IMG/VR virus record: IMGVR_UViG_3300034103_001027
Span: 42,834 to 106,833 of that record
Source: a virus
Length of the DNA: 64,000 nt
Strand: one strand, 5' to 3'
Shown: piece by piece, positions 8,846 to 54,970 of the stretch
Layout of the letters: each line of letters starts with the position of its first letter
Position numbering within the stretch: the stretch's first letter is position 1
Translations under genes and position numbers: made by a program
The notes under the pieces: model-generated
Told to the model about the DNA's origin: nothing
The model's input: only the letters and a program-made list of their open reading frames with translations
Database searches by the model: none

Positions 8846-8872
8846 TTTGTATATTGCTCCTTGATTGACTGG

Positions 8873-9982: not shown

Positions 9983-10047
9983 AGGTTGATACTCCTTACT
10001 GTGTTATGTTGCCTGGCCAGCCTCATGCCGACCAATGGGGTTGTCCG

Positions 10048-13876: not shown

Positions 13877-13879
13877 TGG

Positions 13880-14536: not shown

Positions 14537-14770
14537 TGTCGTCTTGTTCCTCTTGGATGTGCGCTGTTTGGAAGCTTTCTTTACACAGTGGGCACACCAC
14601 GATGCTTGGGTGTGTTTCGACTATAGCGCCACCCCCGTCTTCTGATCTTGCGTTGTACTCGTTATTGAGCTGCTCCTCGGAGATGACTTTAATCACGGGA
14701 TGAACGTAGTTCATTGTCCCGCAGCTATCGCATATCCATGCGAAGACTTCGAATAATTCTGCCACTCTCA
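14529..14770 (-). CDS. Small zinc-ribbon protein
   Basis: CDSC...CPLC; the start MRVAE likely overlaps the primase stop. Confidence 0.5.
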
Positions 14771-18448: not shown

Positions 18449-18465
18449 GCCTCTCGTGTCTCCTG

Positions 18466-19419: not shown

Positions 19420-19436
19420 TTTGTCCTCCTTGAATT

Positions 19437-19465
19437 GTTTTATCTAAACTACTGGTATATGGCAA
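19437..19465 (-). promoter_or_regulatory. Sigma70-type promoter TTGCCA-N17-TAAAAC containing the repeated GACTTGCCATATA(A)CC motif
   Basis: Directly upstream of the AGGAGG RBS and ATG of the parB-like gene. Confidence 0.6.
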
Positions 19466-19519
19466 GTCTCGTGGCTAAGTGTATCGCATTAAATCTGCGC
19501 GGCGCAGGTTATGACGTTG

Positions 19520-24595: not shown

Positions 24596-25735
24596 TCAAA
24601 CAGGAACAGCACAACCGGAGTTGCGACTTACATTCCCTAGCCCTGACGCCTGATGCCCCAGGCGTTTAATATTTAAAGCAGCATTCAAATCTCGATCAAC
24701 TGAACAATGACAACCACCACAATTAAAAACTCGAACATCAAGAGGCATGTTTTGAACACGACCGCATTGATGACAGGTTTTGGTTGTCGGTTCCCATTGT
24801 CCGATTTGCTCGGTACTTTTACCACGCTTGTACGCTACCCACTTCAGAATCTGCAAGAAACTATCGAACGAAAGATCGGATATCTTCCTTCCCCAAAGTT
24901 TCTGCATGGCTGCGATATTAAGCGTCTCAAAGTACATTATGTCAAACCTATCACACAACGAATGTGCCAACTTAAAGAACCAATCGGTTCTCCGGTTGGC
25001 GATTCGCTCGTGTGCTCTGCTCAATCGATACTTTGCTTTTCGGCGATTCTTGCTGCCTTTCTTTTTACTTGCCAGTTCTCGGTTGCACTTGGCAATTTCA
25101 GCCATGCTAACCTTAAAGAACTGCGGACTTTCAATGGTAGTGCCGTCGCTGCAAGTGAGGAATTGCTTGAGTCCAAAATCAAAGCCAGCCGTATGAATGG
25201 AACCTGTGACTTGATTTTGAGTCTCTTCCTTCTCACAACTAAACACTACCCAAAAACGATTCATGCTATCTCGCTTGAGCGTGCAAGTTTTGATATTGCC
25301 TTCGATCTCACGAGATTTAATGAATTTGTACTGATACTTACCAAAACGGATTCGATTTTCGCCAAGGTATGCCCAACCTGCCTGCTTGAACGTGACGCTT
25401 CCATGCCCAGCGGAACGCTTGAACTTGGGCTTGCCTCGCTTCAGCCCAGCCCGCGTCTTGATCCACTTAAAAAACGCTTGGTACGTCAAGTCGAGTTTTT
25501 CAATGACCGCCTGGACACATTGCGATCCAACGACTTGCCAAGCTTCGCGACGATTGCGAAGCTTGGCAATGTGCTTCATCAGCTGGAATTTATTGCAGTG
25601 CTTCTTGAACAATCGATAGTGGGTTTTTTGAAAAGCAACACAGTGATTGCGAATGCGAGTGGCTGTAGTCACAAGGCGATGAAGCCTGTGATTCTTGCTG
25701 CTCTCGTACATTCGGAATTTGTAGCTGATTCTCAT
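24596..25735 (-). CDS. tnpB: TnpB RNA-guided endonuclease
   Basis: RuvC D (GFDFG), E (FETL), D (DRDLNAA) and zinc finger CHQC...CGGC. Confidence 0.95.
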   Translation of the reverse strand: MRISYKFRMYESSKNHRLHRLVTTATRIRNHCVAFQKTHYRLFKKHCNKFQLMKHIAKLRNRREAWQVVGSQCVQAVIEKLDLTYQAFFKWIKTRAGLKRGKPKFKRSAGHGSVTFKQAGWAYLGENRIRFGKYQYKFIKSREIEGNIKTCTLKRDSMNRFWVVFSCEKEETQNQVTGSIHTAGFDFGLKQFLTCSDGTTIESPQFFKVSMAEIAKCNRELASKKKGSKNRRKAKYRLSRAHERIANRRTDWFFKLAHSLCDRFDIMYFETLNIAAMQKLWGRKISDLSFDSFLQILKWVAYKRGKSTEQIGQWEPTTKTCHQCGRVQNMPLDVRVFNCGGCHCSVDRDLNAALNIKRLGHQASGLGNVSRNSGCAVPV

Positions 25736-26128
25736 TTAGACGTTTCTCTGGTTTTCAATATATTGCTTAATGACCGAAAGCGGAGCACCACCCACCGTTG
25801 CGACGAAATAGCTATTTGTCCAAAGCGTTGGCATTCGACTCTTGAGGTGCCTGAATTCTGATCGAAGCAACCGACTAGTGCGTCCCTTGATCTGCTTGAC
25901 GAGGCGATGGATTCCGTACTGTGGATCGCACTCAACAAGAAGATGCACATGGTCGGGCATTGTCTCAATTTCAATTATGTCACTAAGACGCTCGCCGCAA
26001 ACCTGACGAACAATCTCCTTGAGTCGCACATCAACCGCATCAACGATTACGTTTCGCCTGTACTTCGGGCACCAAACCACGTGGTACTTGCACGAGTAGC
26101 AGACGTTGTTGTTAGTTTTGTATTTCAT
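25736..26128 (-). CDS. tnpA: IS200-type Y1 HUH transposase
   Basis: 'YHVVWCPKYRR', HUH 'PDHVHL', 'LWTNSYF' and catalytic Tyr in 'QYIENQ'. Confidence 0.95.
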   Translation of the reverse strand: MKYKTNNNVCYSCKYHVVWCPKYRRNVIVDAVDVRLKEIVRQVCGERLSDIIEIETMPDHVHLLVECDPQYGIHRLVKQIKGRTSRLLRSEFRHLKSRMPTLWTNSYFVATVGGAPLSVIKQYIENQRNV

Positions 26129-37148: not shown

Positions 37149-37684
37149 TTGTCTTCTCCTTTTGAAAATTGTTTACTATCCCGCAGGTACTTCAGAAGGG
37201 CGACCGCCTTCTTGTACTCAGCCTGAATCGCCAGATCCTCTAGTGCCGCATGCCCGTCAAGGGCCTTGCACAGGTCGGACATGGAGATCAGTACGTCTCG
37301 AATGCTTGTCACCATATCGATGGTAACGCCACCAATAGTGACGCCACCCTCTACAGTGAGCATCCCATCTATGACGGTGATCGTGTGCTTCACTTCTCCT
37401 CCAGCGTGTACGTGACTGCTACGTCGTCCATGGTTTCGCTAATTACCGCACCCTCGGACCTCAGCACTGCGAGTACGCTCTCAAATGCCTTCTTGGTGCA
37501 GTCAGATATAGCATCAACTGGAACAATTCGAACTGGTCGGCCACTCATGAGATCCTCTACGTGTCTAGCGATGTCACCTGCAGGCCACCCGAACGTCATG
37601 AACATCGCCATCTCTTGCCTGACGATTTCACTTGACACCTCATTACTTAGCTTCATATTGATTCTCCTGTCTCTTAAGAGACGG

Positions 37685-38644
37685 CTAAACATTAAAGAAC
37701 TTTCGCAATCTCTCGTGACCGTATTGACCTTTCGTCTTCTCAATTATCTGCTTGACCGTGTACTCCTTTCTCTCATGCCCTGCGGACTCGACGAACATTT
37801 GGCAGCCCATCGAGCAGGCCCCGGTAACTGACCTGTACAACTGAACGCACTTCTCGAACGGCAGCTTGTCGGTTAGCTTCAGGCCCTTGAACTCACTGGT
37901 GTCCCTCGGTGATAACTTGTAGGCCAGGGACTCACGCGCTTTCTCGATGGTCTCTCCGTGAGAATAGTTCTCCCCGTCTGTTACGAGATACGAAACCTTG
38001 CCGTCGATCTGGCGTAGTTTGCGAATACCAAACTTCTCGCTTATGACTTCCGAGAAGACACCATCAACCTTGATGTACTTGCCGTTCTGCCAAGACAGGA
38101 GTCGAACATCGCTTCCTATATGGCGACTGTCGCCCTGCAGGTGTAGGTCTCCACCAACCGTAGGATTAAATCCTTCCGGCAGGCTGGTAACACTCCGCAG
38201 ATATAGGTTTCCACCAACCGTAGGATTGAATCCTTCCGGCAGGCTGATAACCCTCGACAGGTATAGGTCTCCACCAACCGTAGGATTAAATCCTTCCGGC
38301 AGGCTGGTAACGCTGTGCAGGTAAAGGCTTCTACAAACCGTAGGATTAAATCCTTCCGGCAGGCTGGTAACACTCCGCAGGTCGAGGTATCCACCAACCG
38401 TAGGATTGAATCCTTCCGGCAGGCTGGTAACACTCCGCAGGTCGAGGTCTCCACCAACCGTAGGATTGAATCCTTCCGGCAGGCTGGTAACACTCGACAG
38501 GTATAGGTCTCCACCAACCGTAGGATTAAATCCTTCCGGCAGGCTGGTAACACTCCGCAGGTCGAGGTCTCCACCAATGGGCTGCCTCCCGTCGAACTGC
38601 TCGTCAGTAATATTGAATTTCTTGCAAAACTCTTTTCGATTCAT
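37685..38644 (-). CDS. Leucine-rich-repeat-like protein with seven 20-aa repeats
   Basis: GGDLxLxSVTSLPEGFNPTV x7. Confidence 0.85.
   Translation of the reverse strand: MNRKEFCKKFNITDEQFDGRQPIGGDLDLRSVTSLPEGFNPTVGGDLYLSSVTSLPEGFNPTVGGDLDLRSVTSLPEGFNPTVGGYLDLRSVTSLPEGFNPTVCRSLYLHSVTSLPEGFNPTVGGDLYLSRVISLPEGFNPTVGGNLYLRSVTSLPEGFNPTVGGDLHLQGDSRHIGSDVRLLSWQNGKYIKVDGVFSEVISEKFGIRKLRQIDGKVSYLVTDGENYSHGETIEKARESLAYKLSPRDTSEFKGLKLTDKLPFEKCVQLYRSVTGACSMGCQMFVESAGHERKEYTVKQIIEKTKGQYGHERLRKFFNV
38140..38576. repeat. 60-bp tandem repeat (about 7 copies), coding
   Basis: Repeated 'ccaccaaccgtaggatt(a/g)aatccttccggcaggctggtaac' at 60-bp period. Confidence 0.95.
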
Positions 38645-41600
38645 ATTGATTCTCCTGCCTCTTAAGAGACGGCTAGTGTCCTAATTTCCTCGAACTCGCA
38701 CTCGCTGACCCCATTGATCCTTAACCACTGCACATGCTCGTACTTCTTGTAGAGTTCATCTCGAATCTCGTCGGCACTTGCGTGGCTACTTAGGATCACT
38801 TGGTCGGCGATACGGTAAAACAAGCCGGACGCATTAACCTTGCGCCCTGTGAATTCGCATTGATAAATCATGTGTTCTCCTTTTTATAATGCGACATGCC
38901 GTACATGGCAAGTCTGGGTCACCAGTCATACTGTGGAAGTTCTTCGTGCAGCGGACCATCCGCATCGAGGACCAACCATTTGCAATCATTGTCCTTGGCT
39001 ATACGAAGAAGCCTCGCAACATTCGTGACACCAAAATTCTCAAGAGCACTAATCGTCTCCTCGAAATCCGGTGGTGTGTATATTCGCCATCCATATTCAT
39101 ACGGGTAGCATATTATGTACTTATTAACCCTACTGCACTTATCTTGGAGCGCTGCGCTTTCAAGTACATTGATATGTGCAGTGCTGAAGACAATCTCTTT
39201 GTTGATTTCGTAGTTCATATTCGCTTCCCTTCTTCTGTAAATTCGTATTCGTTGCAAACGATATTCTCAGCAACATTCTCGTCACCCATCAAGTAGTCGT
39301 ACTCCCTCTCAAGGCTCTTGTACAACCAGTGCGCAAGGTCTCGGAAGAGATCAAGCAAGTCGTCTTCGACGGTTGGCTCAGTGATATCCTTGCCGTCCCG
39401 CCCTTCTATGTAGTCAACGCTCATTGTGTACGCATGAACACCCCTGCCACCCTGACTCACTCGGGCCGTCAGTTGATACATGTACGGCTTCTGTATCGAC
39501 TGCAGTCCTTCGCCTATACGCAGTAACTCCTTGTCATTGCAGTACGCGAGGAGCTTCTTCTTCCAGCCAGGCGAGTACTCATAATCCCCGGCCCAGGATG
39601 CTCCATCACCCTGCGAGCAGAAGCCGCTAAAGTAAATCACTGGCTTGTACACAGGTATCTTAGCGCCGTCTTTTCCGAGACGGTAAGTGCAGCTTGTTCT
39701 TTCGCTCAGGGTGATACCGAGTATCTTCGTGATCGCAATGAAGTCATCGAAGATGCAATCCCACCACTCGTCGTATGGGTAATCCCCCCCTCGATACCAG
39801 TCGCGAGCATTGGCTTTTGCTGAATCGCTAAGCTCCTCGTAGGTGTAGACCTTCGTCTCAATCGTTCGCATGGCTCTCCTCCGTTCTCTGTATTGGCTCG
39901 ACCTTAGTGACACGCAGTCCACCGCAGATTGTCTTGGCAGTCACCTGATGTGAAGGAGCCCTGCCTTTCGAAAATGGATTGGACTTCCACTGAACCTTGA
40001 TGCAATCTTCATCGTGCGATATCCGCACAGTCGTCCCAAGGCATGCGCCGGGGTACTCATTGCCACCGCTGACAATGCCGTTCTCTATGGCGCGAGCAAT
40101 CCTTAGTAACTGCTCGGCACTCAACTTAATACCGTTCATTACATCCTCCTAATCGAACCAAAAGTAAAGCCTAATTGCAGACACAATGAACTCATCTGCT
40201 TGATTGGCGAACCTACTGAAGTCAGCCAGAGTTTCTTTACTGTACTCCCCGACATACTCCAGTCCCTCGATAGTCACCCTGTAGTCGTCTCTTAGGTGAC
40301 TGATGGCGTAGCCATGGGCCGTAAACACTGGGTTGCTCTCCATAAATTTAAGCATCTCCGAGGCAGTTGGCGCACTGTTCTGGTGATCCTTTCCTTCAAT
40401 GAACTTCTCATCGAACAACTTCTTCAATGTCTCTAGGGTCATACCCCTGAAACTCTCGCAGTCGCCGACCTCATCTCGGCCAAAGATAATCTGATTCCGT
40501 CGCTTGTAATCTTTATTTAACATCAGTATTCTCCTTAAATATCTAATCCACCACGCTGAAATAAAACCACCTTCTTGGGATGCTCGATCTCGTGCGAGCT
40601 TTTCATTCTTCTGCCCCTGCACTTTCAATGAACTTCTCCCTTGTCAACACCTGAATCACTACAGACATATCCGAAGCCAGCCCCCTGGGTGATATCGGGC
40701 CAGTTGGCACCTCCTTCAGAGTGCAGTTCGGCCCGTATGGTAGGATGGTCAGTTGACCAGCCCAGCTTGACCCAAAATCATGTGCTTCCAGTAGAACCCA
40801 GCCATCAGGCCGGTACTCATTCAGTTGCACCCCAAGACGCCGTGACAACTCTGGCGGCTCAATGTCTTGCTTGCCGCAGTATGTTGCGATAAACGTCGAA
40901 CGGTCCACGTATTCCATCATTCTTCTCCTGTTTCTTGTGGTACATTCGCCTTACATGGCAAGTTGTTGATACAAAAATCATACGCATCAGAAAATCTGTC
41001 GTCGCTTCGCACCATGGAATCAATCTTATTGACCCACAGAACAGTGACCGGATGTTCCCTCAGCGCATCGCCATAGACACCATGGCCCTTTAGGTCCGAT
41101 AGCGCCCTGGAGAATCCATTAGCTACCGCCATAAGATTGCAGGCGTCTTGGACCGATAGGGCGTCATCGCATAGTTCAGGTATTGGTTTCATTGACATGA
41201 GTCCTTTCTAAAGTTGACTTCATTTCGAGGATACAGAACATGTATTCATCATGGGCAACTGGCCGCCAGTTCTCCACGAGATCCTTCAAGACCATTGGCC
41301 CTGTGCAGAATCTCCCTTCATGGAAGTAGATGATTTTCTTTGTTTTCTCGTGGACATACGAAGGACAGAATCCCCAGTATTTCCAGCACCCAGTAATTGT
41401 GTAGCCATACCTCGCCATGTCTGGGATCTTGCGGAACCCGTCAATAGCATCCGCCTTGTAGTACCTGCGACGGTCAGCCATCACATCCATCCTTTCTCTT
41501 TGAGGTGCTGCTTAATATCCCTATAGGTGCAGTTGCTTAGTCCTGGCCAGAAGACGCTAAACATAGTTCCGTACTCAAGCTCTGCCTTGCACGCACCTCC

Positions 41601-44600
41601 TCGCCACCACCCGCAGTAGCCGCAACTACTGAACTTAATTCCTGCATACCGTGCGTACTGCACCATAATGCAGCCGCACGTATCGCCTGCCAAATTCTCA
41701 CCGAATCTAACCTGTCGGTCGTCCGGCTGCTGCTGAATAAACTCGATCATGTCTTCCCTGGTTACTACTTTCATCACTGCTCTCCCTTCGTCTCTTTAGA
41801 GACGGCATTAGCTTTCTCTTGAACGTACGACATGGCGTCACACCGAATCGTCGGAACCCCACGAATGATTGCCATTGCTCCTCCACCGAACTCATCAGTT
41901 CGCATTTTGCTACATGTGTATGCCCACGAGCAGAAGAATGGGTCATCGATCTCAAGCTCCTCAATTAACTGTCGAGCAATCGCGTCGACTGTAATCGGAC
42001 AGAACGACTCGTCTCCGATGAACAGCACTCCATCACCCTTGATCTCAATCTCCACTCCATACTCAAGATAAGACTCGTATTCGTCCTCACTTTCTCCGTA
42101 TTCTAGACATACAGATTTAGCCGCCTCGATCTTCGCTCTCTCAATGATCTCCTGAACGCGAGGCATCTTGTCTTTTGGTATCTCCATGAATGAACTGCTT
42201 TGTGAATAGTTATTGGCCATTTCATCTCTCCGTTTGTAAGGGTTAATTCCGCCACGAACCATCTCTAAAAAGACGGTTATATGGCAAGTCACCAGCGTGC
42301 CCACTCAGGCAACGCTTCGTAAGTTTCCTGCGCCAACTCTTCATATCGCATCGCCCATGGAATGTCGCCGCCAGTCCTCTTGGTTCTCGCCTCAAGGGAC
42401 AGCGAAGCGTATTGGCGTAGTTGTTTAACTGCATCCATGGCTTCCTTTCCTTTGCCAGGGAACATGACCCTAGCTTCAGTCATGGGCCGATCCCACATAG
42501 ACCGATAGAACCCACGCAAGTCCTCCTCGTCCATCCCGTCCAAGTTCGGGCTGCCAACCCAATTCCTGGACTTCTTCCTCGGTGTCGCCTTAAGTTCCTT
42601 AAGGTTCTCCAGTGCCCACTTTCGCATCGCAACAGCTTCGCTTCCTGCGCTATTGTGTCCGCCCCCATTATTCCAGGCGTCGTATAGTTCATCAGGAAGT
42701 TCCAAGCCGAACCGGCAGTAAACGTCATCCGGCACTGTCTCTGGTAATCCATCTGATCCATACGACCCAGATAGCGTCGTTTGGTAGTCACCCAGCTTCG
42801 CGCTGCCCATCATGAAGTGCCCGAATTGCGACATCTTCACGAAGCGAACTACACCCTTGAGCTTTCTGTACTTTTCGCTCTCGCCTTGCATGAGAATCAA
42901 GAATTCTCCGTGAGCGAACTGCTCTCCGCTGCTAGTATATCCTCGCTTTGTTGTTGTTACGAACATTAGTTGCCCCTCCAGTCGAGGTCTTGTGTTATGC
43001 AGATAGAACGGCGTCGCGTTAAGGCGAAACCAGCGGTCAGGCAGTCGTTCACATCAGCGGAAGTGTACTCGTTCCAGGTGGTAATGTATTCTTCGCACAG
43101 TTCCAGGAACTTCTTTTCTGCGGACTCATAGTCGTCGAATAAGTAAGCCTCTTCTAGTAAATTGCGGTCGATGATAACTACTAGTGTCTTATTCATGATT
43201 AACCTTTCTGCCGTCTCGAAAAAGACGGCCCGTGATGATAGTCTATACTTCCCCTACGATCTCAAGATCAGGGAAGCTTGGGATCTCTAGGGACCGAATA
43301 AATTCCTCAATTGTCGTACTTGGATCGCGTGCTTCAAGTTGATCCAATGGGATCAAGATACGACCTGATTGAGTGGCGTTGAACATTGCAATACCATTTG
43401 GCGTGTAGTATTCAACGTGCCCATCAAGCTCGTACCTGGTGTCCCGTTGAATCAAGATGGAGGCTCCAATTTCAATACAATACGCAACAGTGTCGTTGAA
43501 ATCACTTTGAGTGCATTCGTAGAAGTACCCGAAACCATCATCACCTAAGTCGCCTTCAAGGCACGGCGACAGCAAGCACTCGATCTTCTCTAATTGCTCC
43601 TGCGTTACCTTGCCGCCAATGTAAACCGATCCACTAAACCTGTCAGCCATGTTACACCTCCTCCCTGTCGTATGTATCACAAACCCCAAAAGCTTCTGCC
43701 GCATCGTCTGGATTCTGCTTAAGGTACCTAACCCTCTGCTGTAATGCGTCAATTAGCACGCCAACCGGAACATCCCTCGGTTCTTCGCAGTCGTGATTGA
43801 CTGTAAACGCCACGTCAAACATGGTGTTGTATCTCATCGCTCTCTCCTTAGTACTTGGATTTCTCTTGCCAAACAAACTTAACGCCTTCCGGTAGGTCGG
43901 CTGTCTGAAACTCTGCCACAATTGGAGCCATTGCATCGAACTGCTCCTTCGTTATCCTCCTATCGGTGCTAGTCCAATTGACCGTCACCTCATTAGTGTG
44001 GTTGTAGTAAATGTAGTTGATGCCGCTTCCGAACTTGTCAAGCATGAACAACTCAATATCACGGTCGATACGAAGCTTCTTGGACTTGTTATCAAAGTCG
44101 CAGAGAATCTCAAGCCGCTTCTGCGCCTTAAAGCGAGCTTTCTTTTCGGCGTCTCTTGCGGCGATAGATTCAGGTGAGTAGTACCCAGTTCTCCTTCTCT
44201 CAGCCACCAATTCCCTCATCTCTTTCGAGACGGGCTTGTAGTGCTTTCTTGTGGCTTTAGACTCGAACTTCTTGCCGGTCCACGCCTCAAGCTGGGCAAT
44301 AGCGGCATCTGCCTCTTGCTTCCATCTCTCGACAATACCCGTGTCCTCGAGGAGTATTTGAATCTCCTCATCGGATCGGCACTCAATGAATGCAGGAAGC
44401 TCAGCATCGGTCAGCCTGAGCGACTCCTTGAAGATGCGCAGGCACTCCTCCTTGCTCTTTGCCCAGCTTCCACTGCCACCGTGATACTCGACCCAGGGGG
44501 CACCGAGATACCCGGCCAGCCAGTACCACGCATTGCCTCCATGCATTGGGACGCCTTCCCAATCACACAGGTGAAGGTCAACGAACGGCTTGAGTTCTGG

Positions 44601-44846
44601 CCTGACCGAGAGTATCTCCTCGTGGCAACAGCCGCCACCAGCATCGACCCATCGACCTCGACCGTCCTTCTCTTTGATGTTTGCTGTTACAGAGAAGTCC
44701 TCATGGCCATTCTTACAGTCATCGTCCAGGGTTATTCGAATGTCGAACAACCGGCCACCCTTCCTCGCCACGATACTGTGCCGCAGGGTGTTAGTCGTTT
44801 CAGTTGTTTCAGTCATTTCATCTCTCCTTCGTCTCTTTAGAGACGG

Positions 44847-45008
44847 TTAGTGCGTCGTGACATTGCATTCGTACTTGCCTATCAAGTGCGATAATGCTTG
44901 GTTGGCATTGGGCCAGCTACACCAGCCCATGCCGTTCTTGTAAACAGAGCCGGACATGAAGATGTGATACACATCTGGTCCGACTCGAACTGTATAGATC
45001 AAGGTCAT
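44847..45008 (-). CDS. 53-aa gene (MTLIYTVRVGPDVYHIF...) bracketed by identical palindromes; not in the ORF track
   Basis: Hand-translated; AAGGGG RBS follows the palindrome, and the TAA abuts the next palindrome. Confidence 0.6.
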   Translation of the reverse strand: MTLIYTVRVGPDVYHIFMSGSVYKNGMGWCSWPNANQALSHLIGKYECNVTTH

Positions 45009-45315
45009 GCCATTGCCCCTTTCGTCTCTTTAGAGACGGTTAGTACATTTGGTCAGCCAATTGACATCGCAGTTCCTGAGCCAGGTCCAGGCAGTTTGAG
45101 CTTCTGTACACGCCGACATTCGCCCAGTACTGATGCAAGTACGCACCGCCACTAAAAGAGTTATCGCCGGTCTGGTAATCCCAAGAGCCGTCCTTGTCAG
45201 CTCCAACGGTTAGCTGTATCCCTGGTTTGTCGTCACCCTCGAAGGCAAGATAGTCATCCTCGATGTACTTCTTGATATGGCGACACAGCTCGTAGAGTTC
45301 TTTGATTGTTGGTTT

Positions 45316-45477
45316 CATTTGCTTTTCCTTAGTGAGTAGACTGATTCTCCAGGTGGCCAGATGCATGGCACGAGATACAGCGTGACGCCGCACTTCGGGC
45401 ACGTAATAGTCTCTGGTTCGGGCCAGCCAGGGACATTGATCATTTCTTTGCAGGCACCGCATGATTGACTAGTCATG
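45316..45477 (-). CDS. 53-aa zinc-ribbon protein (CGAC...CPKC); not in the ORF track
   Basis: Hand-translated; ATGA overlap at its start, and its stop overlaps the start of the next gene. Confidence 0.55.
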
Positions 45478-46510
45478 CGACGCCTCTGTCTCTCTTGCGA
45501 CGGTACGCTTACGCCTTATCCGGGTCACTAGGAACGTACATTCCCAGCTCTCCTCGTCACCGCTAATAAGCGCCGCTTCCCACATACAAGGGCGACACCA
45601 TAGCCTCGTTCGTTCGTCAGCCTCCCTGATAGCGGCCTGGCACATATTCTCAAGCCAACCCTCGCTACGGTCGTACAGGTCAGACGGAAGCTTCACTTTG
45701 TATTTATCCTTAACAGTGCTCATGCTGTTCTCCATGAAGTTGTTGGCGCTTCTTCGATGGCGTAACGTGTGCCATCGTCAATCAGAACTAGAGCCTCTCC
45801 AGGGAAGAGATCAGGCTTGCCGATGCAGATTGAGCCATCGGCGATCTTGGAATTTACAAGGGACATAATGTCCCCGAGGGTCGCGTCGTCCTCGTAGTCG
45901 CTGTAGTACACACAGGCTTTCGAGAAGGACACGAAGTGATTAGTGCCGTTGGTCATCAATCATCTCCTCATTAAGGGTTATATGGCAAGTCCTATCCGGA
46001 ATAATAGCGACAGAGACTTGAGGTCTGTCGCCATTCATGTTGATACCTACGACCCATCGGTGTGACTGGCACCCCGAGAGGAGGAGGGTAAGTAGCAGTA
46101 ATCCTTTACGCATGATAATCCTTTCTATTTGATCCATGAAAACTCATAGGGCCATTGCGACGGACTGCATGAATCGTGAATGCGTTGGTACGACCGAATA
46201 AGATCCCTATGACTCTCTGGCAGGCCATATATGGTAACCAGTCGATCCCAGGTGTGATTCTCGAAATCCACGTTGTACTCATCGTCTCCGATGAGGCATC
46301 CCGCCGCACACTTGAGGGTCTTACCGTCTCCTTCGAGATGATAGCGACATATAGCACCGGCTACACATCGCTCGCCCTGAGCGAGAAGATGCGCCTCGAT
46401 CTGTGCCTTAACCTCTTCCCGTGTTGCAAGGTGCAATGTCTTTAGCGTGATCATGATTAACCTTTCTTGTTGATGATTGCCGTCTCTAAAAAGACGGCCT
46501 CTTGCTTATA

Positions 46511-46552
46511 CAAAAACTTGCCATACAACGCAAGAGTGTTATATGGCAAGTC
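46511..46552 (-). terminator. Hairpin built from two inverted copies of the TTGCCATA motif, followed by T5
   Basis: Minus strand ACTTGCCATATAAC-ACTCTTGC-GTTGTATGGCAAGT-TTTT. Confidence 0.6.
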
Positions 46553-48771
46553 GATTCCAAAAATTACAGCAGGAACTCAGTCGTAGTCCCGCATACGATC
46601 CACTTGCCAACCTTGTAGTCCAGCGTGCCGCATGGATGGCGATGCGGGACAAAGACCACAAGGTCTAGGTACTGCAAGGCCAGGAACATCGGGCTATCCT
46701 TGGGCATGTCGACTGGAATTGATTCATGCGCTGGCCGCCAAGCGCCCTTCCACACTAGGCTTCGGTATGTATCAATAATCTCTTGCCTGGACAATCTAGC
46801 CCCGGTCTTTTCAAGGACGACTCTAATCGCCTCTCTAACCCATTTAGCGCGAGACCGACCGGCAGCCGCTCGATCTACTGGCTCTATGACGCAATTTACG
46901 TGCAGGTTTCTTTTGCTGGACCCAGCCCAATACCCGCATCCATCCCTGGACGCAGTGAAAAGCTCTCCATGCAGCCAGAACTTGTCGCCTGGCGCGAGCA
47001 ATCCAAACCGATAAACTGGCTTTATTTTTTTCGTTCTCATGTTTCCCTTTCACTCGTCTTTTTAGAGACGGTTGATTGTTGTTGCGCATTTTCCCTAAAG
47101 CAAATCCTGGATCTCGTCAGCTAGGCGATACGTGTACTTCAGTTCCTCGTCAGATGCCCACTGCATGATATATGCAGCGGTAACCCCTTTCATACTAATG
47201 CCACCACCGTGGGCCATCAAAAACTCGTCCACAATAGCCCTCATGGCTTCATTGAGATGCACCCACTGTCCGCCCACTGGAAGGTTCAGTGCTTCCGTCT
47301 CCTTGGCGCTAAACAGATCGCAGGAGGCGATGTCGCCCCAGCCGTCTGCATTAGACCAAAACAACATTACGTTGTTTTCCATGCTTCGAATCACATAGAT
47401 CATGGTTTCCCCTTCGTCTCTAAAAAGACGGTTAAGTGTTATTACGGATTGTCTCTAGGTTAAGACATGGATTTCGAGCGATTGTGGACAGAGCTGCCGT
47501 CCGGGTAGATATTGAGCCCAACGTAAAACGCCGGGAGCACTCGCCGATCCTCTCCTGCGGCCTCTGCGGCCAATCCCCTGGCAATGTCATCCAGGATACT
47601 GTACTGGCAGCCATCTTTGCAGATATTGGCGACAGTGACATTCCTTGGGTCAAAGCCTTCAGCCCGCAGCAGACCAACGACACTTCGCACGGGGGTTCTA
47701 CTTAGCACCTCAGGCAGGCGGTACACGAAGCTCGTGCTGTTGACTGTAATCTCAACTCTCATTTACTTCCCCTTCGTCTCTAAAAAGATGACTCTTAGCC
47801 CAGACGGACCTTCCGCCCGGCTCTCTTGAACACGCCGCCAACGGGTCGCTGCCGACCCAATTCGGGGCAGGCCGTAATGACCCAGCGCCCGTTTGGTTGC
47901 AACACCACGCGCCCAGGCCCAGCCGGAACCGGCCTTTTCAGGCTAGCATGTTCCATTGCCACTAGGCCCAACGCCTTCCTGGGTGGCATCCCATAGTGGG
48001 CACACATTGCCCGTATGGATACCCAGTGCCCATAGTATGGACAATTCATAGTAACTTTCCTTATACCAGGAGTCCCAAAACGAAACAAGCCAACAGCCCC
48101 GATAAGGCAATTGGCTAGCGTCGTCTCGAAAAAGACGGACCAAGGTCGGCGCGCACCCCGATGATAGTCCCCTTATGATAGTCCGCATCTTGCCGATTCA
48201 CCCGTCCCCAAGGCAGCCGCTGACCATCGGGCCAACCGCTGCTGTGTAGGACAGGTGAATCGTTTGAAACAACCGTCTCAAAAAAGACGGGTCAATCCCC
48301 AATCGGAAGTCTGGTAGTGCCGAATTCGGCGAATCCAACAAACGTATAGTTCGCCAAGGCTTTCACGCTATCGCTCCACTTCCGGCCATCCACGCCCAGG
48401 TCGTTCAGAATGTCCAAGAACACTTCGGCAGTCGCGCCGTAGTGACGATGCGTCTCAGCGTATGCCTCCCAGTAGAGGTTGCCAATCGCATCAAAGCCGA
48501 CTAGCACTTCAACTGGGCGGATATAATCCGGGTGTTCACACAGATACTTAGCAGCCATTTCGATTCCCCTTTGTTTCTAACCGTCTCAAAAAAGACGGCT
48601 TGCACCAATTACGGATTTTCTCCGTGGTGCTTTTGGTCCAATTGAGACAATGGAAACAAGTGAAACTTGCTTCCCCTACGCAACAAACGTAGGCTAACGA
48701 ATCCCGTAGGATACATTAGCCTACGCCGCCCCCCTAGTTTGAGGGGCGGAGAAGGTTATATGGCAAGTCGA

Positions 48772-49542
48772 TTAGGCGACTTCAGCGGTAGCCGCTGCAA
48801 AAGCTTCTCGAGCCATCTGATCTACTTCAGGGGCAAGCATTCCATCCAGCCAAACTGCCTTGTCGGCAAGGGCTTGGCTTACCACTAGATCGAACACTCT
48901 ACCGCTAAACTCAGGGCCGCCAGCCTTCAGCCAGTCAGCGATTAGCAGCAGCTTGTCATTGGTATCCGCTGGCAGGACCGCTGGAATAGGCGACTCAACC
49001 GTCTCTTGAGAGACGGTTGGATTGCCAGTCGCACTCTCGGGCTGCGCTTCCTCAGCCTTCTTCTTAGACTCAATCGCCCCTACAGCCTTAAGCTGCGCAT
49101 TCATCTGCTGGTTGAGCAGATTGCCAACGCTCCGCAAGCGGTTCCCGATGCACTTGCAATCCAATTCCCACTTGCGATACGCTTCGGCGTCTGCTGGAGA
49201 CGGGCGTACTTGCATGCGCATTTCCCGGACAACTAAGTCCCAATGGGCGTAGCTGGTCCATGCAAAGCCGCACTTGGCGCTAAACACCCCTTGGCTGACG
49301 TCGCGCTTCTTCTTCTTGGCAAGAGACTTCAGCGCTTCAACAATGGTCTCATTGCAAGACCAGAACGCCTTGATACATTGCAGCTTGTCGGCGCTCGCCG
49401 TATCAACGGTCGAGTCCGCAAACACTTCCCGCATGAATGGCTCCATCATCACGACGCGCTCACTGTCAGTCAGTCCATTCTCAATCTCTTGTGCCAGCAT
49501 ATCCCTAACGGCACTCTCGAACTTGGTCAGATTCTTGCTCAT
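48772..49542 (-). CDS. Hypothetical 256-aa protein, first gene downstream of the large structured RNA
   Basis: AAGGAG RBS overlaps a palindrome; a second palindrome lies inside the gene. Confidence 0.7.
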   Translation of the reverse strand: MSKNLTKFESAVRDMLAQEIENGLTDSERVVMMEPFMREVFADSTVDTASADKLQCIKAFWSCNETIVEALKSLAKKKKRDVSQGVFSAKCGFAWTSYAHWDLVVREMRMQVRPSPADAEAYRKWELDCKCIGNRLRSVGNLLNQQMNAQLKAVGAIESKKKAEEAQPESATGNPTVSQETVESPIPAVLPADTNDKLLLIADWLKAGGPEFSGRVFDLVVSQALADKAVWLDGMLAPEVDQMAREAFAAATAEVA

Positions 49543-49639
49543 TGCATTCTCCTTCGTCTCTTAAGAGACGACTAAAAACGGTTCGGCAGTATAGCGAAGG
49601 TGCTTGTCTGCTCTCGATTCACTCGACTTTGCAAGAGAA

Positions 49640-50340
49640 TCGAAAGCAGCCCTTGCACCAATAAGATACAAGGGCTGCCATTTTTAGTTTCTAGTTATGG
49701 TGAGAGTCGATGCCCCGCAGCAATCCAGACCCTTTTGGGGTACTGGTTGTAAAGCGCCCATATTGCCGCTTTACACTTCCCGTAGATAGCCCCTGCGATA
49801 CTTTCCGCCTATTTAATCGCGCCAAATTGTAGGCTATTGCTCACGCTAAAATCGGTTTCTAGTCTCCGATAGTGAATACCCGCTTTCCTAGTGTTTTGCC
49901 AGAACACCAGGCGTAAGAGACCCCCTTGATAGGTGGTGCATTGAATATCCGGCCTTTTATTGGCGACTACACGCCGCCTGACTACACGCAATAAACGCTA
50001 GAATCCGCATCATATCGCTATGAATGCGTTAGATTGTCGCGCTATCTACGTCGTAACATTTTATTGTTACAGCCCCCCGCTTTTCATGGCCTTCCTCAAG
50101 TCAGGGTTTCGCAGGGCGGTCAATACTAGCCATCGGTCTTGACAAGGGTAGTATTCCTGGAGCACACGGTTGGGTTTCCCCCAACTCAGTGACTGGTCCT
50201 AGTTTATCGAAAACTCGACTAGGACCCCGCTGATAATCTGCTATCGCAGCTTTCTGTCGCGATTACCGATGCGACAACCTAACATCATATGGGACAATCG
50301 TTCCTTGCATGCTTGTGTTGCTGTGATGCTATTTCCAATT
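49640..50340 (-). ncRNA. Candidate large structured ncRNA (about 620-700 nt) with a pseudoknot
   Basis: No credible ORF; more than 12 hairpins; long-range crossing helices; GNRA loops and G-U wobbles on the minus strand; upstream promoter and downstream terminator-like hairpin. Confidence 0.7.
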
Positions 50341-50347
50341 GCCTAGC

Positions 50348-50377
50348 ATTGTGGCAACTAAACATCGTATGGAACAA
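50348..50377 (-). promoter_or_regulatory. Putative promoter for the large RNA (TTGTTC-N18-CACAAT, extended -10 TG)
   Basis: Immediately upstream of the first hairpin; a palindrome copy lies at 50399-50416. Confidence 0.4.
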
Positions 50378-50786
50378 GTGAAACAATGGTTTCGGTTGTC
50401 GTCTTAGAAAAGACGGCTTGTGGCTTGTATAAGAATTAAGGCGAAAAATGCTTTTCAACGTGCTAATGGGGCGAATTTTCACATTAACTTTCAGTTTTGA
50501 GCGTCGTAAGTGCTTATTTGACAAGGGGTTACGAAAATCAGCCAGGTGATAAAGGGGTGGGACGGACCATTTGTCTTGTAGATATATATTGGTACAGCCC
50601 CAAAAATTTTTCACGATTTTCAAACTCCAATTCCCCTCTTTTAGTGGAGCATGCGAATCAAACGAATCAGGATTGGGCTAGAATCGACGCTGATCGAGCC
50701 TTGACTCTTTACACCTAATCACCCTCAAGTCGCTTCCTGACGCGAGTTAGGGGCCTTCTTGAGCGTTTGATGCGACCTGAGGGTCT

Positions 50787-50962
50787 TGAAGGTGCGAAGT
50801 AGGTGGAAGCACCAATTGCCCCTTTCAACGCTTTACGGGGCAATCTGATGCGTTTTAGGGCATCTATAGCCCCACGAGCGTCTTGTGGGGTGTTAGGTAC
50901 GGTGAGGAAGACGGTGATTCGGTGGTGAAGGTGCGGAATGGGTGGAAGTACCAATTGCCCCT
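50787..50962. repeat. 37-bp imperfect direct repeat (50787-50823 / 50926-50962)
   Basis: tgaaggtgcg...ggtggaag(c/t)accaattgcccct occurs twice. Confidence 0.8.
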
Positions 50963-51175
50963 AGCGCATTTGATACTGATCCCTGGTGTCCTTCTTGCGT
51001 TCCCTAGGGTTCCTTCCTGCCTTTCTTCACGGGATGCCTCTTCCCTTCTGCTCCTATTGCTTCGCTTACCCCTTGAGAGGCTATTGCTTGGCTATTGCCT
51101 CTTTATGGGGCTTGTTGAAGCAACTTGGAGCTATTAGTTATATGTTGCACCTTATTTCAAATGTGTACCATTATT

Positions 51176-51203
51176 TTGAAAGTCAATGAGGGAATCATAT
51201 ACT
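51176..51203 (+). promoter_or_regulatory. Promoter TTGAAA-N16-TATACT
   Basis: AT-rich region directly upstream of the second structured element. Confidence 0.65.
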
Positions 51204-51209
51204 GTTGCG

Positions 51210-51491
51210 CGTTTATGTCTCTATGTAGTTTCTAAGCAGGCCGCCCAGGGAGGAGGCAACCAAGAAGGGGCCTGGTTCACGCTGCTTTATGTCTCAAATG
51301 ACCTATTTTAGATCTCAACTGACCACAAAAGAGACGGAAAGCAGCCATTCAAACCCTTAATGGCTCGCTGGACGCCCTTATGTACCCCTAGAACGGCTTG
51401 AGACCCGATTAGTGCATGGAATCTTGCCATTAAGGTATCTGAAATAGACCCTAAATACACCAACAACTGGGTTGCCGAGTAGATTTTATGG
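51210..51491 (+). ncRNA. Candidate structured ncRNA (about 270 nt) with two pseudoknots
   Basis: Three stems plus two loop-to-downstream pairings; G-U wobbles on the plus strand; has its own promoter. Confidence 0.6.
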
Positions 51492-51598: not shown

Positions 51599-53650
51599 AT
51601 GGGGCGTGTTTGGAAGCGAGCGGGTATTGATCTGGACGCTCTTATTGATGCTGAGCGCGCTGCTCAGCTTAGCGGTTATGACCTGGATGAGGATGCGTTC
51701 TATGCCAGGCTCTGCGAGGCCACTAAATGCGGTGCAGTCAGCGCCCCAGAAGGGGAGAGATACGACTGGTACACCGATGACGAGGAGTCCGAGGGGCCGG
51801 AAGCCGCCCCTGAGCCCGAAGATGCCGATAGTGAGTCATGGTGCTGGCATGGGCATCCCGACAGGGGGGAGCGGATTCGTCGAGTCCAGGCGTATACAAA
51901 GATACACGCCAAGCACCGGGACATCTGGGACATTGACGCTGAAGACCTAGAGATCCTAACTGCAGCCAAGGAGGAGGTCCTCATGCGCTGCAAGACATCC
52001 TATGGGGTCATGTACGTCGTGGAGGACTTTGGGGTCAGCGAAGTGAGTGTCCGGTGGGTCGTTAAGTGCCACAGGAAGAATCTGAGGGCTGGTGATCCAG
52101 ATGCTCTAGCGCTTGAGAAGGCGATTCAGGACAGAATGAAGGCGGCTGGCGGTCCCAAAGGCATGAGGAATGCAATGAAACGCAGACGTCGTTTTGATTT
52201 GAGTGTAACTAAGGGTATAAGGCAAGTTGCTTCAGCGTAGCAGGGAGGCTGAGATGGCTCAAGCGATAGTGATTTGTGCTTTTGTGTTGGCTTTTGTGGT
52301 TCAGGGGTTATTTGTACTAAGAGAGGGCAGTGATCATGAAGATTGAAGATATTAACGCAACGCTCCGCAAGGACGTAGATGTGCTTTTTATGGATGCCAT
52401 GGCGGCTCGCAGAGCCTTGGGTGAGGCTATGCGGCGTGTTGATGGCGTCCTGGAGGCGATTGAGAAGATCGAGAAGCTCGAGGACGCAATGCTTATTCAC
52501 AGCCGGAAGACCGGATCAGCATTGAACCTTACGCTGCCTAATGCGCCGGAAGGTGCCTATACCAGCACTTGTGGCGATGTGCAGCTTTGGTTCGACTGGG
52601 CCAATAAGGATGATGGAGTTTGGCCGTAAATACTACGGCTTAGTGCGATTTCTTAACAAGGAGTTTTATATGGTACATGGATTAGAAGTCATCAAGGCAA
52701 TGAATCACGAGGCTAGCGCGCCTGACAAGTTGCAGGCTGAGATCGTAGCTGCGGAGGCGCGCAGGTTATACGAGGACTTGCCTACCTTCCGGTGGGGCTC
52801 GGCAACTACATTTGTGAACGCTGGCGGGAGGCTTATTCGCATTACCATGTCAATTGTCGATGATGCAGATGGCATTATCCGCGACATGGGCGGGCGAAGA
52901 GTGACTGTCGGCAGTAAAGTGCGAGTCCACCAAGAAGACGGAATCCGCACTGCCGTTGTTCACAAGCTCCAATTGAACCAACCGACCAAAAACGCACCGG
53001 GCTACTGGGTTGATATCGATTCCGGCGAGGGGCTAGAGGGAATGCCATCATATCTCCTGGAGGTGATTGATGACTGACATAGTAAAAGCCCTCAGAGATC
53101 CAGAAGGATGTACCGCAGGCGACATAAGCGAAGCGGCAGATATGCTGGCATTCTTCTTTCTTATGATGCAAATACACTCCCCGAAGGGGAACAATCAATA
53201 CAGTTTCGTGTTCCATAACGGCTGGCCAACGACGCTTTGTGTTGGCAGCGGCCCGCAAGAAGCTGTTCGGGCTGCGATTCGAGATATCAGAACGAATATT
53301 GGTGAGTAACAATGAATCGTTATGTAATAAAAACTGAACGCACTGGCGAGTCAGGTGAATGTCATTATGTATGGGCGAAATCCAAAGACCGCGCTGTCGA
53401 ACTCTTTAAGGAATTACACCCAGACGCAGTGGCGAAAGGAGCATCCTTGACAGTGACCAGTGACAGACTAGATCCACCGGCTGGCCTTCACGACGAAGAC
53501 ACTCCAGATGGCGCGCTCAGCGAGCGTGAGAAGATGCTTGGGCTACTACGGCAAACCCTCGACATGATGGAGCGATGCAAGTTGTACGGCCCACTAAGGC
53601 GAGATATCAAGTCAGTCCTAGGTCTCCCGCAGAGTACATCCAAGCCATGA
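51599..53650 (+). CDS. Rightward operon of hypothetical genes (51599-52240, 52330-52629, about 52670-53077, 53067-53309, 53312-53650)
   Basis: Co-oriented ORFs with RBSs leading to xis. Confidence 0.6.
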
Positions 53651-53865
53651 CTCTTCTTGACACTAAACAAGTCCACCAGATCACAGGTTGGTCCCTAGAC
53701 AAGATCCGCTCACTCATACGATCCGGTAGACTCCCCGCTGTCAATACGAGTTCAGGGAGGCGTCCTACGTTCTCCATACGACGCGATGACCTTGATCGGC
53801 TCATAACACCAACCGAGCCTAAGTCGCACAGAAGAACGCGACAGAGGGCTCCTAAGGTGTTTTAA
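53647..53865 (+). CDS. xis: Excisionase-like HTH_17 protein
   Basis: 'LLDTKQVHQITGWSLDKIRSLIRSGRLPA...SIRRDDLDRL'; convergent with int. Confidence 0.8.
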   Translation: MTLLDTKQVHQITGWSLDKIRSLIRSGRLPAVNTSSGRRPTFSIRRDDLDRLITPTEPKSHRRTRQRAPKVF

Positions 53866-54970
53866 GGAGCCATGATCGAATGTGCAGACAGACCTTCTTG
53901 ATTCTCTCATCGCTAACCTGTCTGTACCTTGAGGACATATCCGATGCACTTGGGGTATGCCCCATACAGAACGAGACAGCGGGGAAGTCCATTGTCTCGT
54001 CTCCTACGGTCTGAAATGTCCTGCGTAGGTCATAGAACGAGCCTTTCTTGAGCTTAGCGGCGATACGAGCCTTTCGAAACATTTGCGTCCCTGCGTCTTG
54101 TGAGTCATGTTGCCACGGAGTGCCATGCGAAGTTAGCAATGCGGCACTTAAGTGGCTTGACTCTTTTCGACGCGAAATGGACGCCTTGATGGCCTTGATT
54201 GTTTCCGGCCAGAGATAGATTCTCCTTGGGGTGCCGGTTTTATTTCTAGGGCAGTTGAGCCACGGGAGATCCTCTAGCTGATCTAGTGTTATCCTTGAGA
54301 TGTCACCTACTCCCATTCCTCCGTTGATACCTAAGTACACTACTGGTAAGAAGTACACATTGCATTTGGATAGGATGGATCTGATGTGGCTTGCGGGGAG
54401 CGGCCCAGAGGAGGATTGATGCCTTTCGAGGCGAGTGATCCTTGAGCTGAACTCAGACAATGCGCAGCCTGGTTCCGCTGGCGGGAGGTACTTTGAGTTC
54501 CTAAGCCAGTTTAGAAACGCCTTGATTCGGCGGATGTCACCATTGACTGTAACATGCGATCTCTTCTGCACCGCGCCGCGACCACCAGTTCCCTTCTTTC
54601 GAGAGACCGGCTCCAAGAGCTTCACCTTGATTCTCTGATAAGCATCCTGATTCCAACTCGCTGGGTCGCTGGTCCTCCCCATAACACCACATAGCCGCAC
54701 AAGAGTCTTCTTGACCTCTTGAAGCGACCTGTCGCTAAACTCACCTATTGCGACCTGTTGCTTCTTATGGTCATAGTACAGATCGGCAAGTTCATGCAGA
54801 GGAAGGTCCGGTGAGTCATCTATCTTCCCGAGGCCAGCGCGAAGATTCTCTTTGGACTTCGAATAGGACAAGAGAGCCTTCTCGAGGTCTGTACCGAAGT
54901 AGTAAAACTTGCCATTGATCTTTTTGCACCACTGGCCGCTGGTGTGCCTGCAAAGCGGTAAGTCTCCCAT
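53852..54970 (-). CDS. int: Tyrosine integrase (planctomycete-type)
   Basis: 'GQWCKKINGKFYYFG' arm-binding domain; RNKTG, YDLRRT, MGH and catalytic RY; adjacent to attP. Confidence 0.9.
   Translation of the reverse strand: MGDLPLCRHTSGQWCKKINGKFYYFGTDLEKALLSYSKSKENLRAGLGKIDDSPDLPLHELADLYYDHKKQQVAIGEFSDRSLQEVKKTLVRLCGVMGRTSDPASWNQDAYQRIKVKLLEPVSRKKGTGGRGAVQKRSHVTVNGDIRRIKAFLNWLRNSKYLPPAEPGCALSEFSSRITRLERHQSSSGPLPASHIRSILSKCNVYFLPVVYLGINGGMGVGDISRITLDQLEDLPWLNCPRNKTGTPRRIYLWPETIKAIKASISRRKESSHLSAALLTSHGTPWQHDSQDAGTQMFRKARIAAKLKKGSFYDLRRTFQTVGDETMDFPAVSFCMGHTPSASDMSSRYRQVSDERIKKVCLHIRSWLLKTP

Follow-up and report, generated by a model that had tools for sequence, protein, structure and literature searches.

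A palindrome array in a putative early operon

The window analysed here is a stretch of 64,000 nt, bases 42834-106833 of the 106.8-kb linear viral contig IMGVR_UViG_3300034103_001027 from IMG/VR (estimated completeness 77%), and it encodes a large terminase, helicases, a serine recombinase, TnpB, Y1 TnpA, a tyrosine recombinase, a C5 methyltransferase and an Xis-like open reading frame (ORF) matching HTH_17. From about 50.4 kb down through the region described below, all genes lie on the minus strand, in what we take to be a putative early operon transcribed leftward. This gene string carries an array of a short palindrome that is conserved in sequence, confined to one block of genes and placed just upstream of many start codons, and whose adjacent copies resemble one another beyond chance.

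In total, we identified 19 good copies of CCGTCT-N6-AGACGG, all of them within positions 37667-50416 of the window (12.8 kb). Copies were accepted with up to two mismatches to this consensus, save for one that has three. The other 94 kb of the contig contained only two matches, each with two mismatches, compared with 4.3 expected from shuffled sequence. Read on the gene strand, the unit is 18 bp long, CCGTCT(C/T)-N4-GAGACG(G/A), in which arm positions 2-6 and 13-17 hardly vary; its A/T-rich centre comes in only five recurrent types. Its flanks are polar: about half of the copies are preceded by TAA or TAG, and the 3' arm runs into AGGAG or AGGGG, giving a module in the order stop codon, palindrome, Shine-Dalgarno (SD) sequence and ATG. 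The dyad symmetry does not generally extend into these flanks, one of which is the stop codon and the other the SD sequence.

In the majority of cases (14/19), an ATG occurs 9-38 nt downstream of the palindrome, and in 11 of these the distance is 9-14 nt. Most of the intergenic gaps measure 28-56 nt and are taken up by the palindrome together with the SD sequence; where the gap is wide, the palindrome lies near the downstream start and away from the preceding stop. Three copies (38655, 41788 and 45486) are embedded within the 3' end of the upstream ORF, and the distance to the downstream start is still kept. Removing the 18-mer in silico at 44829, 45022, 47414 and 37667 left an ordinary, compact stop-SD-ATG junction in each instance. 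The arm word CGTCTC is also the BsmBI/Esp3I site, and an explanation by restriction-site logic was rejected because this word is not depleted elsewhere in the genome.

Seven of the start-linked copies, all on the minus strand as are the remaining ones, stand outside the four pairs described in the next section. The copy at 49554-49571 (centre CTTAAG) lies 11 nt before the ATG of the first gene of the operon, past a weak promoter-like sequence, TCGAGA-18-TATACT. Copy 47054-47071, whose centre is inverted relative to its neighbours, precedes the ATG of 46564-47040 by 13 nt, and the perfect copy 46480-46497 (centre TTTTAG) precedes that of 46125-46454 by 25 nt, with TTGCGT-17-TATAAG, read by eye, upstream of it. 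Further along the transcript are the degenerate copy 45486-45503 (two mismatches; 9 nt before the ATG of 45315-45476), the perfect copy 43211-43228 (centre TTTTCG; 14 nt before 42966-43196), copy 42259-42276, which is fused to a promoter-like 14-mer, ACTTGCCATATAAC, and has the largest start distance (38 nt before 41774-42220), and copy 41788-41805 (gene-strand centre CTAAAG; 13 nt before 41481-41774). Among the copies that are not linked to a start, the outermost, 50399-50416, lies in an ORF-poor leader, 856 nt from the next start; copy 48121-48138 (centre TTTTCG) is found 71 nt before the ATG of 47795-48049; and a perfect copy, 48999-49016, occurs within the first early ORF, 48772-49542, which has no homologues (an ORFan). 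One further match with two mismatches, 44216-44233 within the gene 43848-44816, is probably a chance occurrence rather than a true member of the family, because it encodes PVSxE, a peptide that homologues without the motif have kept as well.

Two stretches without genes are associated with the array. A stretch of about 1.9 kb (49572-51487) that separates the first early gene from the divergent, rightward genes contains no convincing ORF; this leader holds palindrome 50399 as well as two direct repeats of 42 nt (50782 and 50921), and had no Rfam match. Within the array, palindromes 48273 and 48121 bound and divide a gene-free interval of 240 nt (48050-48290), in which GGACTATCAT words recur and which may represent a decayed cassette or a small RNA.

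The window also carries several genes of mobile elements. A tyrosine recombinase (53852-54970, minus strand) is encoded about 3.4 kb beyond the array and adjoins the Xis-like HTH_17 ORF (53575-53865, plus strand), which gave the sole helix-turn-helix match. The recombinase matched the Pfam Phage_integrase family below threshold (25.2 bits, cut-off 27.1) and matched none of the NCBIfam models, integron integrase models included; the two genes together look like an ordinary phage integration module. The serine recombinase (11761-13188, minus strand) has two separate stretches matched to resolvase-type models, at residues ~2-154 and 182-316. A complete element of the IS200/IS605 type is present on the minus strand at 24596-26098, and is composed of a Y1 TnpA gene (25748-26098; 150 bits to PF01797) and a TnpB gene (24596-25735).

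A second repeated sequence, the 14-mer ACTTGCCATATA(A/C)C, recurs on the gene strand over the whole contig, 20-35 nt upstream of start codons (in the window at 48755, 46538, 45977, 42276, 40950 and 38900 and at about 12 more minus-strand sites). Genes that lack a palindrome either overlap their neighbour or follow one of these 14-mers. No sigma-70 -35 box was found at the usual spacing from it, and it looks like a real promoter element specific to this phage. At 46515-46552, the 14-mer pairs with an inverted copy of itself, forming a predicted 15-bp hairpin that is followed by a run of T.

Paired copies around single genes

A sequence-only reading of this DNA had described near-identical palindromes bracketing single genes, and we recovered all four of these pairs, each of which encloses one minus-strand ORF. 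The first is formed by copies 37667-37684 and 38655-38672 (the latter with two mismatches), which share the centre CTTAAG and lie 10 nt before the ATGs of 37390-37656 and 37685-38644, respectively, the former directly after the stop codon of the gene that they enclose (37685-38644). The two are alike over 35 nt with a single mismatch (37653-37687 and 38641-38675) and, when extended, over 41 nt at 93%. As this likeness continues through the SD sequence and the ATG, it looks like the product of homologous exchange or conversion of a whole leader.

The second pair, with the centre CTAAAG, consists of copy 44829-44846, which abuts the preceding stop and lies 12 nt before the ATG of a 322-aa gene (43848-44816), and copy 45022-45039, which lies 13 nt before that of the enclosed ORF, 44847-45008; an identical 24-mer is found at 44828 and 45021. 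In the third, with the centre TTTTAG, copies 47414-47431 (10 nt before the ATG of 47095-47403) and 47774-47791 (the copy with three mismatches, 11 nt before the ATG of 47460-47762) share an identical 22-mer at 47407 and 47767. The fourth comprises two perfect copies with the centre TTTTTG, 48273-48290, placed 1 nt past the stop codon of 48292-48558 with no start nearby, and 48581-48598, placed 22 nt before the ATG of the same ORF; here an identical 20-mer occurs at 48271 and 48579.

Three of the enclosed genes (44847-45008, 47460-47762 and 48292-48558) are ORFans of 53, 100 and 88 aa. The other, 37685-38644, encodes a protein of 319 aa and is built on eight tandem repeats of 60 nt, which correspond to 20-aa repeat units with SLPEGFNPTVGGDL-like text. 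Its initial label as a leucine-rich repeat gene is unconfirmed, because the protein matched no family in Pfam, PHROG or NCBIfam. No family match gave an indication of function for any of the four bracketed genes. Tandem gene duplication was rejected as the origin of the pairs, since no paralogy was detected among the 41 proteins of the array.

The same reading held that each pair has its own spacer and that neighbours match in it. The first half of this claim needed revision, as three of the four paired centres recur in distant copies: on the strand of the window as given, CTTAAG is found again at 49554, CTTTAG at 41788 and CTAAAA at 46480 and 42259, leaving CAAAAA as the only paired centre type without a distant copy. 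The second half was borne out by permutation. Identical 6-nt centres occurred in 4/18 adjacent pairs (P = 0.045; P = 0.037 when the doubtful copy at 44216 was counted), and with orientation ignored the same centre class was shared in 6/18 (P = 0.004). When only brackets around single genes were considered, a grouping that was chosen after seeing the data, the centres were identical in 4/8 (P = 0.0018). In addition, when the in-register matches of all 171 pairs of copies were ranked by length, the top three were between adjacent ones (P ~0.001), and the run length summed over adjacent pairs amounted to 254 nt (P = 0.018). The likeness of neighbours is therefore real, if moderately so.

Copies with the same centre also occur 3-12 kb apart and share flanks at this distance. 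Copy 49554 resembles 37667 and 38655, including the sequence GGAGAAT..CAAT, copy 41788 resembles 44829 and 45022, and copies 46480 and 42259 resemble 47414 and 47774. The centre types thus behave as sub-families with distant members, and the pattern therefore suggests duplicative spread with a local bias rather than a one-to-one pairing of sites. In several instances the likeness passes beyond the palindrome: apart from the first pair, a 17-nt leader reaching through the ATG is common to copies 43211 and 46480, 3.2 kb apart, and the 10-mer GACTATCATC is present upstream of both 43211 and 48121, which points to the exchange of whole leaders. Because neighbours are unusually alike and the genes that they bracket are unrelated ORFans rather than tandem paralogues, a duplicative or recombinational origin of the pairs is likely.

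The palindrome is also found by itself within a conserved gene. Copy 39666-39683, a perfect palindrome with an inverted centre, is embedded in frame in the gene 39215-39871, which encodes a 218-aa protein of a family with 3907 matches. The loop between two invariant glycines of this protein is 30 aa long here and in one protein that is 98% identical, compared with a modal length of 24 aa in the family (72/147), no other member of which has 30. The excess of six codons is exactly 18 nt, the size of the palindrome. We consider this suggestive of an insertion of the palindrome and not proof of it, because the length of the loop varies across the family (8-33 aa). A fusion junction was rejected as the source of this copy, as the protein family is continuous across the site. 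A perfect copy, in frame and inside a conserved gene, suggests that the palindrome can arrive without a gene; a palindrome pair around a gene therefore need not record the insertion of that gene.

Junction modules in relatives and in other phages

Megablast against GenBank phages and tblastn with the terminase gave no match, and no close cultured relatives of the terminase or of the 322-aa gene were found. An exact-motif scan of IMG/VR yielded one match, which we judged to be chance, and the same scan of JGI metagenomes yielded 19 loci, each with one copy of the motif except for a single locus with two (L021). With proteins of the array, at least nine near-identical contigs were detected. The 322-aa protein is present in exact form on nine contigs, and variants of array proteins were found on contigs of 12.7, 10.3 and 2.9 kb. 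The relatives reached by protein-guided scans were no more than 62% identical, and all of them lacked the motif.

The conserved 322-aa gene (43848-44816, minus strand) belongs to a widespread family and served to find these relatives. Three of them (L030, L031 and L032) are complete IMG/VR phages of 68-73 kb, in which this gene is 61-62% identical and which share almost no other gene of the array. The palindrome is absent from these phages. In its place, the slot between stop codon and SD sequence holds a module of 55-70 nt, composed of CTCGG-T-GGGG-TTAGG-CCGAG-TGC followed by a variable hairpin and GCGTCCCC. This module resembles the pistol self-cleaving ribozyme (Rfam RF02679; Harris et al. 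2015, PMC4604425), although its scores of 32.9 and 29.1 bits fall below the cut-off of 34.5. Copies occur between early genes, five in L031 (7835-7906, 8122-8193, 8578-8649, 9509-9582 and 10945-11016), three in L032 (4256-4334, 5851-5924 and 6911-6982) and two in L030 (9869-9940 and 10928-10999). All 120 cells of the alignment are paired, with all helices present in 10/10 copies, and compensatory changes occur at five pairs; in 500 shuffles, neither the pairing nor the covariation score of the real alignment was ever equalled. The strand that would form the pseudoknot seems to lie just 5' of P2 and not in the loop of P1. No pistol-like element was found in the window, where a model of the relatives' module detected nothing. 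The palindrome resembles the pistol-like module in that both occupy the position between stop and SD sequence, the relatives using it for an RNA-level element. The palindrome shows no covariation, and its size falls far short of that of a ribozyme.

In these three phages the 322-aa gene is flanked by the phages' own pistol-like modules, and the block formed by this gene and its downstream module is found before a pair of genes (A-B) in L031 and after the same pair in L030 and L032. Homology among the three genomes ends right at the module, with the breakpoints at module ends, and within any one genome the leaders that follow the module have become homogenised. Breakpoints of gene order thus coincide with repeated junction modules in this phage group, as in the promoter-early stem-loop (PeSL) model (PMC2839356). 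Other carriers of the 322-aa family have repeated palindromes of their own: in L008 (10 copies, 7840-20103) and L048, an element of about 70 nt centred on GGGCCCCCGGGCCC occurs about every 1-2 kb, and L009 has six copies of GTGTAG-NNN-CTACAC.

The PeSL cassettes of T4-type phages (Arbiol et al. 2010, PMC2839356; Comeau et al. 2014, PMC4122927) are repeated intergenic modules of a region of small ORFans, and have the order found here: stop, stem-loop, SD sequence and start. They also flank single ORFans, and their shuffling has been proposed to proceed by recombination between flanking copies, including the excision of circles, which is the idea that the sequence-only reading had put forward for the present array. 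In contrast to PeSLs, which are about 100 bp long and combine a strong sigma-70 promoter with a terminator-like stem-loop of variable sequence, the element described here is an 18-bp palindrome of fixed sequence, most copies of which have neither a promoter nor a terminator tail. No similarity to T4 was detected for this phage in the searches run.

In mycobacteriophages of Cluster K, start-associated sequences (SAS) are conserved a few bases upstream of starts, include the SD core and are restricted to the non-structural part of the genome; in extended SAS (ESAS), an inverted repeat lies immediately upstream of the SAS, in front of unrelated gene families (Pope et al. 2011, PMC3203893). These sequences, whose function is unknown, have been suggested to act in translation initiation (PMC3203893). 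The array described here has the same architecture, as the distances of the start-linked copies from the ATG (9-14 nt in 11/14) and their confinement to the ORFan block indicate. The likeness is one of architecture only, the sequences being unrelated: ESAS arms are 17 bp long, imperfect and separated by a spacer of 4-13 bp, whereas ours are 7 bp long around a 4-nt centre, and the conserved part in Cluster K is the asymmetric SAS, whereas here the palindrome is conserved and the SD sequence varies.

Similar in form is the 17-bp dyad repeat of Cluster O mycobacteriophages, TGTTCGG-NNN-CCGAACA, also of unknown function (Cresawn et al. 2015, PMC4351075). It likewise has invariant inverted arms of 7 bp around a short A/T centre (TTT or AAA) without a meaningful orientation, and its more than 30 copies are intergenic or close to the 5' ends of genes. 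Separately, a gene of phage Corndog is flanked by a 17-bp direct repeat that is single in sister phages (PMC4351075). Unlike the array described here, which is limited to one 13-kb block and more tightly coupled to starts, the Cluster O repeats are spread genome-wide, and the sequences are unrelated. The stoperators of Cluster A, bound by L5 gp71, are likewise many copies of one short repressor site in the short intergenic spaces of lytic operons, which act beyond the main promoter (PMC6550527, PMC9283540); they differ in being 13 bp long, asymmetric, monomer-bound, oriented with transcription and distributed over the whole genome, whereas our sites are palindromic and regional. Taken together, the array seems best filed as a relative of known phage early-region punctuation, with an ESAS-like association with starts, a Cluster O-like dyad and PeSL-like recombination.

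Proposed recognition and spread of the palindrome

Changes in the arms of the palindrome are all one-sided, and covariation was no better than in shuffled alignments: 240/500 shuffles reached the observed percentage of paired cells and 292/500 the covariation score. The compensatory changes that characterize a structured RNA kept by pairing were thus missing in the array, and no known RNA family of Rfam matched the window. Conservation by sequence and not by pairing argues for a sequence-specific protein, or for recent spread, and against an RNA that is maintained for its structure only. Sigma-70-like promoters were not enriched in the array (15 found, 14.9 expected), and only 3-4 copies of the palindrome adjoin a promoter-like site.

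We favour, at a probability of roughly 45%, the reading that the palindrome is a lineage-specific, start-associated site of protein recognition whose copies recombine as PeSL cassettes do. According to this model, an 18-bp dyad-symmetric site has been built into the leaders of many genes of the putative leftward early operon, and a sequence-specific protein would recognise it and control the early cistrons together; a protein is proposed because the letters are conserved and the pairing is not. Since the palindrome hugs the start codons, recognition would most likely take place on the mRNA leader, where the palindrome, placed immediately before the ribosome-binding site, could serve as a hairpin operator or as a hairpin that protects. 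Twenty copies so nearly identical, packed into 13 kb, would at the same time be substrates for homologous recombination, gene conversion and local duplication. PeSL-like recombination of this kind would produce near-identical neighbouring pairs around single ORFans, and a dedicated site-specific cassette integrase would be unnecessary.

Several observations weigh against this model. Five copies are not linked to a start (50399, 48273, 48121, 39666 and 48999), and the last two of these are perfect palindromes inside ORFs. The asymmetric centre is found in both orientations, which, together with the copies far from starts, fits a site that is read at the DNA level as well or better. As for the level of action, the two strands are nearly equal in the number of paired cells (125 of 140 in sense, 128 of 140 in antisense) and in mean folding energy (-8.7 and -8.4 kcal/mol). 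Genes that have the palindrome and genes that lack it were alike in the predicted accessibility of their ribosome-binding sites (P = 0.33). Among the proteins of the array, nearly all of which are ORFans, none stood out as a candidate binding protein, and the operon is called early from its layout only.

It is possible, though we find it doubtful, that the palindromes are DNA operators of a dimeric phage or prophage regulator, a repressor that from about 20 bound sites would block or roadblock transcription through the early operon, as in the case of the Cluster A stoperators or perhaps the Cluster O dyad repeats, with gene conversion accounting for the likeness of neighbouring copies. The geometry of the site is suited to this, as two 5-bp half-sites, CGTCT and AGACG, have their centres 11 bp apart around an A/T-rich centre, and both arms are conserved symmetrically without covariation. 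The either-way orientation of the centre and the perfect copies inside ORFs and far from starts speak for such an operator, as do the 3-4 copies located just past promoter-like sites (49554, 46480, 42259 and 50399); an integrase is moreover encoded next to the Xis-like gene, so that the phage may be temperate, and the Cluster O repeats share both this form and the A/T centre, again without orientation bias (PMC4351075). However, a roadblock would not be expected to keep the tight 9-14 nt spacing to the start, even inside an upstream ORF. Furthermore, no copy occurs at the divergent promoter-like region near 51.2 kb, the array encodes no helix-turn-helix protein that we could find, and the leftward gene string runs on far beyond its first 13 kb, to which the sites are restricted. 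A DNA site, then, would suit the geometry of the half-sites and the copies within ORFs, and an mRNA-leader element would suit how closely the palindrome keeps to starts.

We consider it unlikely that the 18-bp palindrome is a selfish insertion element that hops locally into sites where it is tolerated, chiefly between stop and SD sequence, in the style of repetitive extragenic palindromes (REP) and Rickettsia palindromic elements (RPE), each pair then representing two insertions around a pre-existing gene. The 18-nt excess at copy 39666, the compact junctions left by excision in silico at four sites, the inverted copies, the absence of the motif from all relatives reached and the near-invariant arms with one-sided changes only are all in line with such an element. 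We know of no enzyme that moves an 18-bp unit, however, and the end hairpins of the IS200/IS605-type element on the contig are unlike CCGTCTC...GAGACGG, as opposed to the cognate hairpins of a REP/RAYT-type system. In addition, the likeness between copies often reaches past the 18-mer into the leader and ATG, the loop holding copy 39666 is variable in length across its family, and confinement to 13 kb and to gene starts suggests use rather than mere tolerance.

The sequence-only reading explained the pairs by circular one-gene cassettes that integrate where the centre of the palindrome matches theirs and thereby duplicate the site, which would be site-specific recombination akin to that of lox sites or integrons. 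Two inverted arms around a centre of 4-6 bp do resemble a minimal core site of a tyrosine recombinase, a tyrosine recombinase is encoded near the array and a serine recombinase elsewhere in the window, the bracketed genes are unrelated ORFans, and half of the single-gene brackets (chosen as a group after the data had been seen) have identical centres. Single promoterless genes separated by imperfect palindromes, and the notion of a circular intermediate, are features shared with integrons. In integrons, though, attC sites are 57-141 bp long, follow their gene and are recombined as folded single strands by the IntI integrase. The site described here is 18 bp long with arms of only 6-7 bp, precedes its gene and is welded to the SD sequence, and the nearby recombinase has no IntI match and is paired with an Xis-like gene. 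Identical centres lie 3-12 kb apart, the first pair is alike over 35-41 nt, beyond any core site, and inside genes the palindrome is found by itself. Bracketed and unbracketed proteins had exact copies on similar numbers of contigs (7-17), which is weak evidence because contigs are fragments. On these grounds we regard cassette integration as improbable. A version in which lox-like minimal sites with matching centres of 4-6 bp can also be planted alone, and in which single early genes are picked up through them, cut out and rearranged by a recombinase of the phage, faces similarly long odds; if true, the phage would carry a cassette system akin to an integron, with a smaller site than any known, in which a ribosome-binding leader is carried along with each gene.

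It is very improbable that the hairpins act as transcription attenuators or terminators between the early cistrons and set a gradient of expression along the operon. In its favour, the palindromes are mostly intergenic and often come directly after a stop codon, read-through in reporters was reduced by PeSL stem-loops that lack a classic tail (PMC2839356), and copy 48273 has a weak T-rich tail. Yet the hairpin, which can form on either strand, has a stem of 6-7 bp with a folding energy of -4 to -15 kcal/mol and usually lacks the T tract that follows the GC-rich hairpin of an intrinsic terminator; terminator-like hairpins were not enriched in the array (16 found, 12.6 expected), and the copies track the downstream start and not the upstream stop, some of them directly following promoter-like sites. 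Finally, that the matching of neighbours is a chance arrangement of a few centre types, devoid of historical information, is hard to credit, since several independent statistics agree (P = 0.004, ~0.001 and 0.018) and the likeness of adjacent pairs reaches outside the core, even if the simplest statistic is marginal, the recurrent centre types are few and the single-gene grouping was defined after the fact.

Phage early regions hold most of the unknown genes for host takeover and counter-defence, and how such genes are swapped while their expression is retained is only partly understood. As a site of protein recognition with PeSL-like recombination, the array would be a very compact answer, in which a single 18-bp palindrome conserved in sequence is welded to ribosome-binding sites, with statistical evidence for local duplication or exchange. 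It would extend the PeSL idea to an unrelated, uncultured phage and link it to the unexplained SAS/ESAS and Cluster O repeats of mycobacteriophages. The pistol-like RNA with which relatives fill this slot does covary, a contrast suggesting that junctions between early cistrons are places where the portable elements installed differ from lineage to lineage.

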